A stretch of DNA of 64,000 bases from an uncultured Pseudomonadota bacterium (GTDB lineage: Bacteria > Pseudomonadota > Alphaproteobacteria > RF32 > CAG-239), in NCBI GenBank assembly GCA_949295025.1, contig CASFJK010000005.1, positions 13,235 to 77,234 on the forward strand. The letters run 5' to 3'. A model generated the notes under the pieces. That model had not been told where the DNA came from, did no database searches, and saw nothing but the letters and a program-made list of their open reading frames with translations. The position numbers were made by a program, and so were the translations under genes. Positions 48,651 through 52,568 of this stretch are shown here, piece after piece (position 1 is the stretch's first letter; the number at the start of each line of letters is the position of its first letter).

Positions 48651-49169
48651 TTAGATCATCTTTTCTGCGTGGAAGAATGTCGGTACCGATTTTGTAAAAT
48701 GTTTACAAATATTCCGAATATTATCAAACCATTCGTCATTCGGAAATTCGGTGTGTCCTCTAAATTCCACCCAAGAAGCTTCCGGAGTTTTATAACACGA
48801 AATCAATACAGGCGTAAACTTTCTGGTCTCTTCAAAAGAAGCCATTTGCCATTTTTCAGCCCAACAACTGGAATCTTGAAAATTTCCATACACCGGTAAA
48901 ACAAAGCTATTACACTCCTTCTGAGGTAATGTAATACAAAAATCCACCTTTGTAGGAACTTTCCAAAAATCTTTAGGATCAGCAGAAAACTCCTGTTTTA
49001 AGACTTCAAGAAAAGCAACATCGTTAAGCTCCAAAACCTGAAATTTGTGTTTTTCAGCTTCAGACACCACTTTCACTTCTGCTTTTTTTAAGTCAGGATA
49101 TTTATCCAACACCTGCTGTACTTGCATTGCCTCGGCAACAACAAGAAAATAAGATTTCAATGCGTACAT
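48651..49169 (-). CDS. Hypothetical protein (172 aa)
   Basis: ORF. Loosely similar Cys/Trp spacing to the adjacent 179 aa ORF, so the two may be a tandem paralog pair. Confidence 0.4.
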   Translation of the reverse strand: MYALKSYFLVVAEAMQVQQVLDKYPDLKKAEVKVVSEAEKHKFQVLELNDVAFLEVLKQEFSADPKDFWKVPTKVDFCITLPQKECNSFVLPVYGNFQDSSCWAEKWQMASFEETRKFTPVLISCYKTPEASWVEFRGHTEFPNDEWFDNIRNICKHFTKSVPTFFHAEKMI

Positions 49170-49197
49170 AGTAAAAAATTTAAGTTAATAAAAAAGA

Positions 49198-49737
49198 TTA
49201 AAAATTACAAACTATCTCACAACTTTCAAATTTGATTTCAGATGCCACCCATTCATGTTCATCAGGCTGAATATTGTGAGCAAAATTGAGCATCAATTGC
49301 ACCCACTTATCATCCGGATACAAAGAATAAGACTGAAAACAAATCTGTTTGGCTTCCAAATTTTCAAAAATTGCAAAACGCAACATTTTGATTTCATTTG
49401 TAGATAAAGAAGACACTACTTTACCACACTGACACCACACAGCATAGAGCTGCGGCTCATCTTCAAATTGCAAAGTAAAGGTACAAAGCTTAGCTTTACC
49501 TTCATCTATCTTTATTGGCAAATAATACTTAATTGCCGCATCTTTAGGATAAGGGGCAAGAAGTTGCTGCAGTTTTTCAGCTGACGGCGCTTCAATAGCC
49601 ATTGCTTCTTCTCTACATCTGATACCAAAAACCAAAGCCTCACGACGTGTAAAAATATTGGGAACATTCTTCACAAAATTTTGAACACGATTTGTAGGCA
49701 TAAGAACCACTGCGGGAAACAAATTTTTATTTTCCAT
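49198..49737 (-). CDS. Hypothetical protein (179 aa)
   Basis: ORF in the same orientation as its neighbours. No motif recognised. Confidence 0.4.
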   Translation of the reverse strand: MENKNLFPAVVLMPTNRVQNFVKNVPNIFTRREALVFGIRCREEAMAIEAPSAEKLQQLLAPYPKDAAIKYYLPIKIDEGKAKLCTFTLQFEDEPQLYAVWCQCGKVVSSLSTNEIKMLRFAIFENLEAKQICFQSYSLYPDDKWVQLMLNFAHNIQPDEHEWVASEIKFESCEIVCNF

Positions 49738-49904
49738 AACTTAATTTTTTTAGGTTAGTTAATAATCACTATAAAAATATATTTAATGCCAACGTTCTAT
49801 CACATTTTTAGACAAAAGCAAGCTTTTTTCTAAAAAATAAAATTTAAACAACAAAAGCTTGAGGAAAACTCAAGCTTTTTTACCTATTAACCAAGATGAT
49901 AACT

Positions 49905-52568
49905 CTAACCCATTTCTTTAGAATTAAGCAGTGAAGCTAAATCAGCCAAACCAACCGTTTTGAGCTTTGATTTTGATTTTGTTGTTTTTTTGGCATCTTT
50001 AATTTGTTTCATACGTTCTTCTTTGCTTAGCTCTGGAAGAACCGGTTCCATCTCTTTTGCTTCCTCTTCCACATCAACTATATACTTAGAATATTCCAAT
50101 TCTTCTTTTTCTTGTTGAATTTTTTTCTGGTTTAACTTTGCTTCTTCCAACAAATGACGAGCCTCTTGTTCTTGAATCTTTTTAGCTTCCGCTTTGGCTC
50201 TTGCCTCTTCTTTTGCCTTTGCTTCGGCTTGAGCCTTCTGTTCTGCCAATTTTTGAGCCTTCTTTTCATCTTCTTGACGTTTGATACTCAATTCAAGTTT
50301 TTCTATATTTTCGGGAGAATATGGTACGTTATATCCATTAAGCCCAAAGGTTGTATAGTCAGAGAACATTGTCTTATATTCGTCAACATTTCGTCCTTTT
50401 AAAATTCTGTTGCGTTCATCTAGTTCATCCAATTTTTCTTGGGGCAGAGCATAAAAAGCAGCATATTTCTGTTCTCTTGTTTCAGAATTTTCACTTTCTT
50501 TTTGAGGAACTTTTTTGCCCAAATTTTGCTTCATTTCAACAAAAACACTGGACACATAAGGATCTTGACGTAAAGTTTGTCCCAAAGATTTTTCAATATC
50601 ACTGATTATTTTGGGTCCTTTATTTACCGGTAGATATGCGGCAATATCCACCATCAACTCTTTCACACCTTTATAATTGTTATTTTTAGTACGTAAAAAT
50701 AGACCTGCAAAAGGCATGCCCGTCTTTTTACCGTGAGCAAATTCATTTTTTTGAAACGGAGATGCTCCGTTAACCAAAGCAAAAGCGGCAGCCTCGGCAC
50801 GACCATAAATCAACATTTCATTCAAAAATGTGGTTTTAGAATCTGCGGAAAGATGATATGGGCGAGCCACATCTCTAAAATCAGAAAAATCCAACTTTAA
50901 TTTCTGATAATCTCTATCTAAACTAATATCATTCTTTCCATATTGAATAAGCGACAAAGCAGGATAAATTTTGGGCTGAGGTGTTACGATACCTTCTTTA
51001 TGGAGTTTTTCCCATGTAGAAGACATATACCCCAACCTATCCATATCTACTTGAGCCATTTTATTTAGCTTTTCAATCATTTTTGGCGTTCTGGCAATAT
51101 TCAACTCTGCTAAAATTGCCAAATCTTGATAAGCAACTGTTTCTACATTTCTATCAACAACGTTTTTATCTTGAGCAATAAGTTGCTCTATCAATTTTTT
51201 GGCATTTTCAAAAACAAAATCATCTCGATAAAAATCAGAAGAAGCCTTTGCCAATTTTTCTGCTAGTTTTTGAAAAGCTCTATCATGATTGCCAAATCCA
51301 TAACCTTGCAATTCTTGTAAAAACTTTTTATTAGGTGCAATGGTAAAATCTTCCAAATAATACAAATGTTTACCCTGAGCACGTAACATCTGATGAATTT
51401 TTGAATGTTGGGAGCCTCGCTTCAAAGAATCTTCTAAAGGAGTATCCATAAATTTATCAATTAATGCTGGTTGTTGTTCGATCATACGCGCAAGAAAACT
51501 TTGTTCTGTTCCTATACAAGAAACATACTCAGGATGCAAAGAAACAAAATGCGCCATAAAAGGCAAATATTTGTCAGATTGAAAATCCCGTTGAATTCTG
51601 CCAAAATCAAATTTCTGTTCTTTAAAATCTTGTTTTTTCAAAAACTCTTCAGGAAATAAATCACATAGAGCCGCAAAATTGTAGTTAACATTTTCGCTTA
51701 ACATCTCAAATACGGTTTTATCATCGCAAGCCGGTTCTCTATCAATATCTTTCTTAAACAATGATTGATAAGCCTCACGTAAGGCATAAACTCGTGTTTT
51801 AAGCTCTGAAAGATATTCTTGATTAATATTATAAGATGAATTTGCTTGTTGAGAATATAATGATACCATATTCAAATAAACATCCAGCAAATGTTTTGGA
51901 GTAGACATATCTTCCTTTGCGTGCCCACGAAGTGTTTCTAAAGTAACAGCCTCTCCGTTTTCATTTACATAAGCAAAATTAAGAACGGAACTTTTGACCG
52001 TTTCATAAGATTGCACGAGTTTTTCATCTTGCAAAATTCCCGAAACAGATAATTGGAAATCGAGGATTTCAAAAGGTAAATAAGCACTTTCCCCCTGATA
52101 AGCGTGAGCTTTTCCATCATCAAATTTCCAAACCTGATTATCAACTTTTATCAAATGTTGTTCAGAATTATACCCTCCAAACTTTATTCCTTTAAGATTA
52201 AACATCTCTTGTTGTGTTTCTGCACTCATAAAGCGGAGTTTTTGATCATTTTTTACCACATAAAAATCTTTAGCAAAAGAAATCTCCTCACCTGCAGCAC
52301 AAAGCTCACCATCTTTATACAATTTCTGTTTGCTATCAGATGCCAACAAAACCAAATCGTTATCAGAATACGGATTACTTAGAAAAGAACCTTCATCAAT
52401 TTTCTTACCATCTTTGAACAGAGTATCAAGCTCTTTATAATTACTTTTTTTCAAAGCCTTATAATATTCGTAATTGTTATGATAGCTATAATTATCATAA
52501 TTATTGACAACGCTTTTTTCTACGATTTCAAAACGATTGCCTAATTTCAATTCTGTACTCATGCTCAA
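49905..52568 (-). CDS. Hypothetical large protein (887 aa) with a C-terminal coiled-coil and a lysine-rich tail
   Basis: Uninterrupted 2.66 kb ORF. C-terminal KKAQKLAEQKAQAEAKAKEEARAKAEAKKIQEQEARHLLEEAK heptad-like region, then ...DAKKTTKSKSKLKTVGLADLASLLNSKEMG. Confidence 0.55.
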   Translation of the reverse strand: MSMSTELKLGNRFEIVEKSVVNNYDNYSYHNNYEYYKALKKSNYKELDTLFKDGKKIDEGSFLSNPYSDNDLVLLASDSKQKLYKDGELCAAGEEISFAKDFYVVKNDQKLRFMSAETQQEMFNLKGIKFGGYNSEQHLIKVDNQVWKFDDGKAHAYQGESAYLPFEILDFQLSVSGILQDEKLVQSYETVKSSVLNFAYVNENGEAVTLETLRGHAKEDMSTPKHLLDVYLNMVSLYSQQANSSYNINQEYLSELKTRVYALREAYQSLFKKDIDREPACDDKTVFEMLSENVNYNFAALCDLFPEEFLKKQDFKEQKFDFGRIQRDFQSDKYLPFMAHFVSLHPEYVSCIGTEQSFLARMIEQQPALIDKFMDTPLEDSLKRGSQHSKIHQMLRAQGKHLYYLEDFTIAPNKKFLQELQGYGFGNHDRAFQKLAEKLAKASSDFYRDDFVFENAKKLIEQLIAQDKNVVDRNVETVAYQDLAILAELNIARTPKMIEKLNKMAQVDMDRLGYMSSTWEKLHKEGIVTPQPKIYPALSLIQYGKNDISLDRDYQKLKLDFSDFRDVARPYHLSADSKTTFLNEMLIYGRAEAAAFALVNGASPFQKNEFAHGKKTGMPFAGLFLRTKNNNYKGVKELMVDIAAYLPVNKGPKIISDIEKSLGQTLRQDPYVSSVFVEMKQNLGKKVPQKESENSETREQKYAAFYALPQEKLDELDERNRILKGRNVDEYKTMFSDYTTFGLNGYNVPYSPENIEKLELSIKRQEDEKKAQKLAEQKAQAEAKAKEEARAKAEAKKIQEQEARHLLEEAKLNQKKIQQEKEELEYSKYIVDVEEEAKEMEPVLPELSKEERMKQIKDAKKTTKSKSKLKTVGLADLASLLNSKEMG

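Follow-up and report, generated by a model that had tools for sequence, protein, structure and literature searches.

The 64,000-nucleotide window analysed here comes from an uncultured Pseudomonadota bacterium (GTDB lineage Bacteria; Pseudomonadota; Alphaproteobacteria; RF32; CAG-239; assembly GCA_949295025.1, contig CASFJK010000005.1, positions 13,235 to 77,234 of the forward strand, read 5' to 3'), and our subject is the set of three open reading frames (ORFs) orf887, orf179 and orf172 lying between aspS and rnd. We read this region as a variable rnd|aspS chromosomal slot of a gut alphaproteobacterium that would hold two independent accessory units, one of which would encode orf887, a dispensable protein of scaffold or adaptor type; we give this reading as a whole a probability of about 0.45, that is, somewhat below even odds. 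A first-pass annotation, made from the sequence alone, had placed three co-oriented minus-strand ORFs between aspS and rnd, and these positions agree with the ORF listing. The genes are as follows, the identities of aspS and rnd being taken from the Pfam domains of the syntenic genes at L001, a locus of a related species (tRNA-synt_2 + GAD and DNA_pol_A_exo1 + HRDC, respectively).

46753-48525, minus strand: aspS, class II aspartyl-tRNA synthetase, one flank of the trio.
48651..49169, minus strand: orf172 coding sequence, 172 amino acids (aa), 28 nt downstream of orf179.
49198..49737, minus strand: orf179 coding sequence, 179 aa.
49905..52562, minus strand: orf887 coding sequence, 885 aa from the ATG at 52562; a start at the TTG at 52568 would add 2 residues, giving 887 aa.
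52722-53900, plus strand: rnd, the other flank of the trio.

The existence of orf887 stands as first proposed, and its 887-aa TTG start does not: translation most likely starts at the ATG at 52562, because the sequence AAGGAG precedes this ATG by 8 nt and P0056, the public gene call on the source contig, is also 885 aa long. The reading frame is kept in the orthologues of all three ORFs, and codon-level comparison with relatives gave ratios of non-synonymous to synonymous substitution rates (dN/dS) of 0.19 for orf887, 0.07–0.16 for orf179 and 0.13–0.21 for orf172, against 0.01–0.04 for aspS and 0.04–0.07 for rnd. Hence, because the frames are kept and all the values lie within 0.07–0.21, the three are, judged by these comparisons, real coding genes under purifying selection. 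At the amino-acid level they diverge 10 to 100 times as much as aspS, and their G+C content is 0.32–0.36 compared with 0.40–0.45 for aspS and rnd. None of the three proteins found a match in Pfam, NCBIfam, PHROGs, PADLOC (no PADLOC or PHROGs match at E<=0.1) or PDB sequences, the last searched with both single-sequence and profile queries, and the earlier remark that no recognisable motif is present is therefore borne out. For orf887, Pfam and NCBIfam returned three sub-threshold matches to unrelated families (E 0.03–0.3, far below the curated cutoffs). No signal peptide or transmembrane segment was apparent by hydropathy in the three proteins. They had also been called ORFans, which is right in that they are unannotated and too strict in that all three have relatives, restricted to a narrow clade.

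An AspS-based scan of the genome collection returned 80 loci from uncultured gut and rumen metagenome-assembled genomes (MAGs), whose record titles include 'uncultured Alphaproteobacteria', 'Azospirillum sp.', 'Proteobacteria bacterium CAG:495' and 'Ca. Scatocola'. The adjacency of rnd and aspS is conserved across the scanned relatives and the content between the two genes varies: across ~70 MAG loci (L005–L084), the slot is empty in ~29 (only 130–220 bp), contains one gene of ~135–230 aa in ~31, two such genes in 9 and ~4 kb in 2. The small slot genes form at least seven BLAST clusters. In the slot comparison, orf887 is carried only by the window species and by the species of L001/L009. The closest relatives without it are L005 and L006 (AspS 99% identical), L008 and L010; orf179 is present in all four and orf172 in all but L010. 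Junction alignment showed that an orf887 cassette of 2.8 kb lies exactly between sequences that are contiguous in these four loci, with boundaries that are ambiguous by ~10 nt, both junctions being T/A-rich. The cassette and the signals that we recognize around the genes are listed here.

49841..52652, minus strand: orf887 cassette (promoter-like region, gene and terminator), delimited by junction alignment.
52595..52630, minus strand: orf887 promoter-like region, GCTTGTTT ... TGGTATATT, suggested by comparison with a similar sequence upstream of the L001 orthologue.
52571..52576, minus strand: putative Shine-Dalgarno sequence AAGGAG of orf887, 8 nt upstream of the ATG at 52562.
49853..49879, minus strand: intrinsic-terminator-like hairpin and T-run after orf887, with an 11-bp stem that has 4 GC pairs.
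49794..49823, minus strand: promoter-like element upstream of orf179, GCTTGCTTTTGTCTAAAAATGTGATAGAAC, conserved in L001, L005, L006, L008 (weaker), L010 and L013, with a putative promoter function.
48598..48636, minus strand: intrinsic-terminator-like hairpin after orf172 and upstream of aspS, a 17-bp stem followed by a T-run.

A hairpin equivalent to that after orf887 follows its L001 orthologue. The promoter-like element before orf179 is conserved with or without the orf887 cassette; near the promoter-like region of orf887 itself, a consensus promoter scan ranked other sites. Thus the shared orientation that had led to the description of a co-oriented trio is correct and a single unit is not, because orf887 has its own promoter-like region, Shine-Dalgarno sequence and terminator, and because relatives without orf887 retain the small pair. 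Read from these signals, the region is composed of two transcription units, a monocistronic orf887 and a bicistronic orf179-orf172.

The element upstream of orf179 has counterparts elsewhere. A related motif, CTTGAyTTTrkmmAAAA, precedes the first slot gene in most loci, whichever protein cluster follows (L012, L015, L016, L021, L024, L042, L045, L050, L061, L069 and others), and combines a -35-like TTGAC/T with a small palindrome, TTGAyTTTrTCAA; the promoter-like element before the slot genes may be a shared operator. Moreover, the 5' untranslated region (UTR) of the ~200-aa slot gene in L056 (9195-9258), L031 (9204-9265), L059, L063, L070 and L071 contains a conserved element, of which a variant form is found in L042, L045, L048, L051 and L062. 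The loop of its hairpin, CAUCAG...CUGAUG, reads GGUGGUG and could form an H-type pseudoknot by pairing with an ACCAC further downstream, and changes in the stem appear compensatory (AU/GC at one pair). This element of the relatives has no Rfam match and does not occur in the window.

Natural alleles bear directly on whether orf887 is needed. The 90%-identity cluster of orf887 contains fragments, and the contigs from which these come carry the same locus at 99.3–99.7% nucleotide identity with the gene broken. The broken loci, homologous to window positions 49905-52562 and belonging to other strains of the same species, are the following.

L093:5793-6998.
L094:1795-4446.
L096:1907-4533.
L097:624-2554.

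Two independent pseudogene lineages can be told apart. In the first, found in three samples, the frame is shifted at two A7 tracts, by +1 at codon 37 and by -1 at codon 813, and the nonsense codons E276* and E839* are present; in the second, found in two samples, G157* (GGG to TAG) is accompanied by a deletion of 32 bp at codons 550–560 and by a +1 shift at codon 604, again in an A7 tract. Both orf179 and orf172 are intact wherever the contigs with the pseudogene reach them. Because natural strains carry a pseudogene with multiple hits, orf887 is, on the evidence of these alleles, dispensable and not needed for growth; the alleles act as natural knock-outs and indicate that loss of the gene is compatible with survival of the strain.

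The positions of the frameshifts raise another explanation, in which orf887 would be a phase-variable contingency gene, turned on or off when its A7 tracts slip, perhaps because in some hosts the product carries a cost or is a target. Four A7 tracts lie in the gene, where 1.4 are expected from shuffles (T7 on the plus strand at window positions 49985, 50120, 50746 and 52445), and A/T7 tracts are missing from aspS, rnd, an arsR-type gene, ispA and orf179. Each of the four has changed length in some public assembly, the assemblies being different ones, and the altered tail of protein P0001, worked out by hand, corresponds to a -1 shift in the fourth tract. The tracts could be a mutational hotspot or a means of phase variation. 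However, a run of seven A is short for a tract that is to slip efficiently, four tracts against 1.4 make no strong statistical excess for a gene so rich in A, homopolymer indels can be errors of assembly, and the broken alleles also hold irreversible lesions, namely the nonsense codons and the 32-bp deletion. We therefore consider phase variation distinctly unlikely, and go on with the reading of orf887 as a dispensable accessory gene.

What kind of protein is lost in these strains was approached with an AlphaFold2 (AF2) model. With an 18-member alignment, the model reached a predicted local distance difference test score (pLDDT) of 79.3 and a predicted template modelling score (pTM) of 0.55; with four close sequences only, the pLDDT was 52 and the model was unusable. 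The predicted layout of orf887 is given below, from the N to the C terminus.

51927..52562, minus strand: predicted all-beta N-terminal domain, residues 1–212, 19 predicted strands, pLDDT ~90, propeller-like by Foldseek.
50973..51899, minus strand: predicted alpha-helical repeat (solenoid-like) region, residues 222–530, pLDDT mostly 75–93.
50523..50960, minus strand: conserved core, residues 535–680, mixed alpha/beta, with Y-H-x-S-x-x-S-K-T-T-F-L-N-E-M ... G-A-S-P-F ... M-P-F ... S-L-G.
50082..50315, minus strand: charged single helix rich in E, K, A and Q, residues 750–827, modelled by AF2 as one uninterrupted helix.
49950..50081, minus strand: linker, residues 828–871, acidic and then Lys-rich, likely disordered (pLDDT <50 at 823–852 and 855–873).
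49908..49949, minus strand: C-terminal peptide LADLASLLNSKEMG, residues 872–885, a candidate docking or targeting motif, conserved in P0002 and P0003, with an AF2 helix at 872–880.

The top PDB matches of the model in Foldseek were IFT-A, COPI alpha/beta', CORVET/HOPS, clathrin heavy chain, WDR11 and Elp1 (E down to 6e-6, probability 0.87–0.99). The full-length matches are thus proteins in which a beta-propeller is combined with an alpha-solenoid, at template modelling (TM) scores of only 0.08–0.17, and the N-terminal domain matched WD40/PROPPIN folds with a probability of 0.95–1.0 at TM-scores of only 0.22–0.28 over 200–300 columns. A search of viral folds (BFVD) gave weak matches of the WD40/PQQ type only. 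Helices of alpha-solenoid type (222–530) directly after the beta domain are present at the level of secondary structure and architecture only, and no internal repeats or blades were detected by hhalign in the 212-residue beta domain. On this model we take orf887 to be a propeller-like beta domain followed by helical repeats, and not a member of the matched families. These matches also bear on the idea that orf887 is a membrane-coat-like protein of the beta-propeller and alpha-solenoid type, which would shape or tether membranes in the way proposed for proteins of the Planctomycetes-Verrucomicrobia-Chlamydiae (PVC) superphylum. Against it, proteins that combine a beta-propeller with helical repeats are common in bacteria without a coat function. 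The identity of the best structural matches and the order of the domains speak for a coat-like protein, because a beta-propeller followed by an alpha-solenoid is the defining feature of the PVC membrane coat-like proteins (PMC2799638). The low full-length TM-scores, the small size of the beta domain and its missing blade repeats argue against it, as do the lack of a transmembrane segment or membrane-binding element, a C-terminal tail of modest hydrophobic moment, and the dispensability and narrow distribution of the gene. A coat-like function thus seems highly improbable, and a scaffold or adaptor of narrow distribution is the reading that we carry into the comparison of the family.

Among 5.8 billion proteins, the close relatives of orf887 make up three 90%-identity clusters, which are 99, 86 and 65% identical to it. 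An exhaustive phmmer search with residues 3–780 against 1.84 billion representatives (cut-off E<=0.001) defined a family of 18 representatives, most of them 1000–1200 aa long. No Pfam domain was found in the nine members that were scanned. All 23 invariant columns of the 18-sequence alignment are held by the ~150-residue core, residues 535–680; a hidden Markov model (HMM) of the core matched only family members in 92 loci, and the core has no Pfam or PDB match. A likeness of this core to ankyrin repeats (TFLNEMLIYG...AL..GASP) is by eye only, and no Ank family was matched at E<=1 by orf887 or at E<=0.1 by nine relatives. After the shared core, family members have a helical region that is charged and then extra domains that vary between members, and most of them end in a C-terminal peptide. 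The contexts of other members that could be read consist of housekeeping genes or are short contigs, and a scan of metagenomes yielded one family locus, also in a housekeeping context. There were no relatives in the IMG/VR, phage and plasmid collections, and a scan of the genome collection with peptide patterns of orf887, which were too specific, gave no match.

Several observations were made around members of this family. L001 has a second orf887 paralogue of 1207 aa (L001:16642-20265) just beyond aspS; in the window this position is taken, on the other strand, by a 140-aa ORF (45270-45692, plus strand) with no family match, a Glu/Lys/Arg-rich C-terminal half and a basic tail, the only homologue found for it being a partial one, in L008. 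In three contexts, including L089 (447-974 and 1191-4340) and L099 (3513-4004 and 4366-7914), the gene divergently upstream of the family member encodes a GNAT acetyltransferase. On a metagenome contig of rumen type, a type IVb pilin-like gene (Pfam PilS/Bundlin; L092:16358-16978, L100:16358-16981) lies ~3 kb downstream of family member P0032. The rnd-aspS slot of 'Proteobacteria bacterium CAG:495' contains an open stretch of 52 codons (L032:6137-6295, minus strand) that ends in ...KAKSVKTAGGLAGLSALLGGNDGK* and resembles the C-terminal tail of the family, at a tail-HMM E of only 0.32; it has the opposite orientation, with stop-riddled sequence upstream, and may, from its sequence, be what is left of a family member that has decayed.

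The last 150 residues of orf887 had been described as an alanine/lysine heptad-like coiled coil followed by a lysine-rich tail. The sequence is present, and the reading as a canonical heptad coiled coil does not fit it: residues 750–827 are 49% charged, with many opposite-charge pairs at i,i+3 and i,i+4, and the best heptad register has only 29% L/I/V/M/F/Y/W at the a and d positions (42–46% counting Ala). Because of this charge, the few hydrophobic a/d positions and the single helix in the AF2 model, the segment is better read as a single helix of the ER/K type than as a coiled coil. Residues ~780–857, which make up most of the charged helix and the linker, are missing from the 65%-identical orthologue P0003, and the last ~20 residues, KLKTVG(L/P)ADLA(S/A)(L/M)LNSKEM(G/D), are kept in it.

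The Lys-rich tail itself was confirmed, with a net charge of +4 in the last 30 aa of orf887, all of it from Lys. Positive charge as a conserved feature was not: in the last 30 aa of 19 family members, the net charge runs from -3 to +6, and four members at or below 0 nevertheless keep the hydrophobic motif. A loose form of this motif, L/M-[ASDGQ]-x-L/A-x-x-x-[LMFWYAK] (related to L-[ASDG]-x-L-x-x-[LM]-[LFKWY]), is found within the last ~20 residues of 15 of the 19, most of which have Lys or Arg on one or both sides of it. Because the charge varies so widely and the hydrophobic motif is kept in so many members, the conserved feature of the tail is, in this comparison, a predicted hydrophobic L-x-x-L-x-x-L/M helix and not positive charge. 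Of 25,953 C-termini taken from 1.7 Mb of related genomes, those of all the family members came first in the ranking by an HMM of the tail, which had been trained on most of these members. We conclude from the alignments that the extreme C-terminus of orf887 is clearly constrained and probably functional. The tail motif was also considered as a portable signal on unrelated proteins, and at E<1e-3 only family members were found among the 25,953 C-termini; a membrane-targeting helix of the MinD/FtsA type was not supported, the hydrophobic moment being at most 0.37.

Put together, these parts suggest how orf887 might work. The body of the protein, comprising the propeller-like domain, the helical repeats and the core, would bind partners; the charged helix would be a rigid spacer to which the disordered Lys-rich linker adds flexibility; and the C-terminal peptide, at the end of spacer and linker, would dock the protein onto another machine or surface. 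The small genes that occupy the same slot in relatives may be positional counterparts of orf179-orf172. A number of points weigh against this reading. We infer the scaffold function with its docking peptide from the predicted structure, and TM-scores as low as 0.1–0.28 make the fold assignment of the N-terminal domain soft. The tail motif is missing from some family members (P0041 and P0043), and the modest hydrophobic moment of the orf887 tail (at most 0.37) does not indicate membrane binding. The frameshifts in A7 tracts could partly be assembly errors, which the nonsense codons and the 32-bp deletion cannot be. Moreover, mutual homology of the small slot-gene clusters was not established by hhalign (<=26%).

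The properties of the tail lead to the explanation first suggested for orf887, in which the protein would be an effector of a VirB/D4-type type IV secretion system (T4SS), its Lys-rich tail would be recognized by the coupling protein, and it would be injected into a eukaryotic or bacterial cell. Such a role would agree with a conserved extreme C-terminus after a disordered linker and a net charge of +4, with the lack of an N-terminal signal peptide, and with model folds of the repeat type that binds proteins. The patchy distribution, the paralogues (two family members in L001), the modular architecture and the pseudogenes of some strains are effector-like traits as well. It also speaks for this role that in Bartonella a positively charged tail is one part of a bipartite type IV secretion signal, the other part being a BID domain (PMC6509941, PMC8714903), which is helical, ~140 aa long and located immediately upstream of the tail (PMC6509941). 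Upstream of the orf887 tail no BID domain was detected, the AF2 model having one 78-residue helix and a disordered linker and no compact helical bundle, and no other known signal domain was detected in orf887. Neither the window ORFs that were checked, directly or via syntenic contigs, nor the surroundings of six other family members, which are housekeeping genes or short contigs, yielded a T4SS-type Pfam domain. The variable charge of the tail across the family, its Lys-rich and not Arg-rich composition, the conservation of its hydrophobic part and the absence of the motif from unrelated proteins in 1.7 Mb of related genomes further argue against a signal of this type. Literature searches for genome descriptions or secretion systems of this gut clade gave nothing useful, and no published genome description of it was found. 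These checks within the window and the family contexts neither refute nor support the effector explanation and do not favour it, and we regard it as unlikely. The wider proposal, that the family, in which core, charged helix and C-terminal peptide are combined with differing N- and C-terminal modules, is either an exported or translocated effector-like set of uncultured gut Alphaproteobacteria with an undescribed C-terminal targeting signal or a propeller-solenoid coat-like scaffold outside the PVC superphylum, is improbable also. We retain a cytoplasmic scaffold or adaptor with a candidate docking peptide as the preferred reading of orf887.

The second unit encodes two proteins that are, as their sequences indicate, clade-restricted, fast-evolving small cytoplasmic proteins rich in Cys and Trp. 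Among relatives we found 14 clusters for orf179 and 12 for orf172, all unannotated, and the top match in each list was the protein of the window itself. The small proteins are 52–74% identical where AspS is 97–99% identical. Both are of similar size and acidic, and each has several invariant Cys, Trp and His positions, which lie in the following motifs.

49198..49737, minus strand: orf179, conserved Cys/Trp/His motifs GIRCREEA; VW-QC-KVV; PDD-W; EW--SEI-F--C.
48651..49169, minus strand: orf172, motifs CNSFVLPVYGNF; SWVEFRGH; FTKS-PTFF-AEK.

That the two might be a diverged tandem pair had been proposed from the spacing of their Cys and Trp residues. Weak colinear similarity was recovered: residues 55–153 of orf172 aligned with residues 54–151 of orf179 in BLASTP at 24% identity over 102 colinear residues (27.7 bits, E=4e-5 as a single comparison), and the Smith-Waterman score of the two had a z of 6.9 and was reached in 0 of 3000 shuffles, with a mean z of only 1.7 over 36 cross-family pairs. 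When the HMM of each family was scored against the other family, 8 of 12 and 9 of 12 members lay above the 95th percentile of shuffles. Profile-profile comparison did not confirm the relation, with an hhalign probability of 0.9–1.3% between the orf179 and orf172 profiles. An ancient tandem duplication is plausible at the level of pairwise sequence comparison, with weak support overall. Another adjacent unannotated pair is present in the window at 40497-41069 and 41477-42052 (plus strand; 190 and 191 aa); the 190-aa ORF is weakly similar to orf172 (pairwise BLASTP E=8e-4; Smith-Waterman z=3.5), and the 191-aa ORF is more weakly similar to orf179 (z=2.2).

A bicistronic arrangement, divergence that is very fast relative to the neighbouring genes, and the occupation of the slot by different small-gene clusters in different genomes are features that a two-gene conflict module would share, be it toxin-antitoxin, toxin-immunity or anti-phage defence. 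However, PADLOC and PHROGs at E<=0.1 gave no match for the three proteins and three slot genes of relatives, and Pfam gave none; dN/dS of 0.07–0.21 gives no hint of diversifying selection; a single gene may stand by itself, as in L010 and the single-gene loci; and no integrase, transposase or toxin-like domain lies nearby. The similar size and acidity of the two proteins also argue against it, as the members of typical toxin-antitoxin pairs are not alike in these respects. A conflict module is thus very unlikely, and the pair is better described as an accessory unit of the slot.

The trio is not exceptional in its missing annotation, because many other ORFs of the window have no Pfam match and about a quarter of the window genes are also unannotated. 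The ORFs concerned include the following.

2469-3053, 4802-6367, 7671-8207, 9052-9720 and 16709-17866: window ORFs without a Pfam match.
20113-20877, 24625-25791, 33052-33630, 37072-37908 and 55792-56391: further window ORFs without a Pfam match.

Seen in this setting, orf887, orf179 and orf172 would exemplify something common, namely dispensable accessory genes, peculiar to one little-studied gut lineage, that occupy a variable slot. The orf887 family is very small, and with a model of medium confidence and a constrained C-terminal peptide it may offer a handle on the interactions of uncultured gut Alphaproteobacteria with hosts or neighbours. If the peptide were a secretion or targeting signal, it would represent a new signal class and the family would be the first effector set for the clade; if it is not, the family would be one more domain of unknown function.

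The following known systems come closest to orf887. Like the T4SS substrates of Bartonella (Bep) and Agrobacterium (Vir), orf887 has no N-terminal signal, a constrained C-terminus after a flexible basic stretch, a modular body, and a gene that is accessory and patchily distributed. It differs from them in a tail that is Lys-rich and not Arg-rich, the charge of which is unconserved and in which an L-x-x-L-x-x-L/M helix is conserved, in that no BID domain was detected, and in the lack of T4SS genes in any context of the family that we examined. With coat-like proteins (COPI, clathrin, IFT and HOPS, and the PVC membrane coat proteins) it shares the order of domains and the best Foldseek matches in the PDB, whereas its beta domain is small, and coat proteins lack its family-specific core, its charged single helix and its C-terminal peptide. 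Residues 750–827 resemble ER/K single alpha-helices and helices of the TolA domain II type in being E/K/A/Q-rich and modelled as uninterrupted; they differ in that the length of the segment varies and most of it is missing from the 65%-identical orthologue, and the likeness is one of composition and of the AF2 model only. Finally, orf887 shares a general plan with proteins known for the C-terminal peptide of FtsZ, the tail of SSB and the membrane-targeting helices of MinD and FtsA: a spacer or linker leads from the folded body to a short C-terminal helix that is conserved and amphipathic and has basic flanks. The orf887 tail has no sequence match to these, and its hydrophobic moment is below that of typical membrane-targeting helices.

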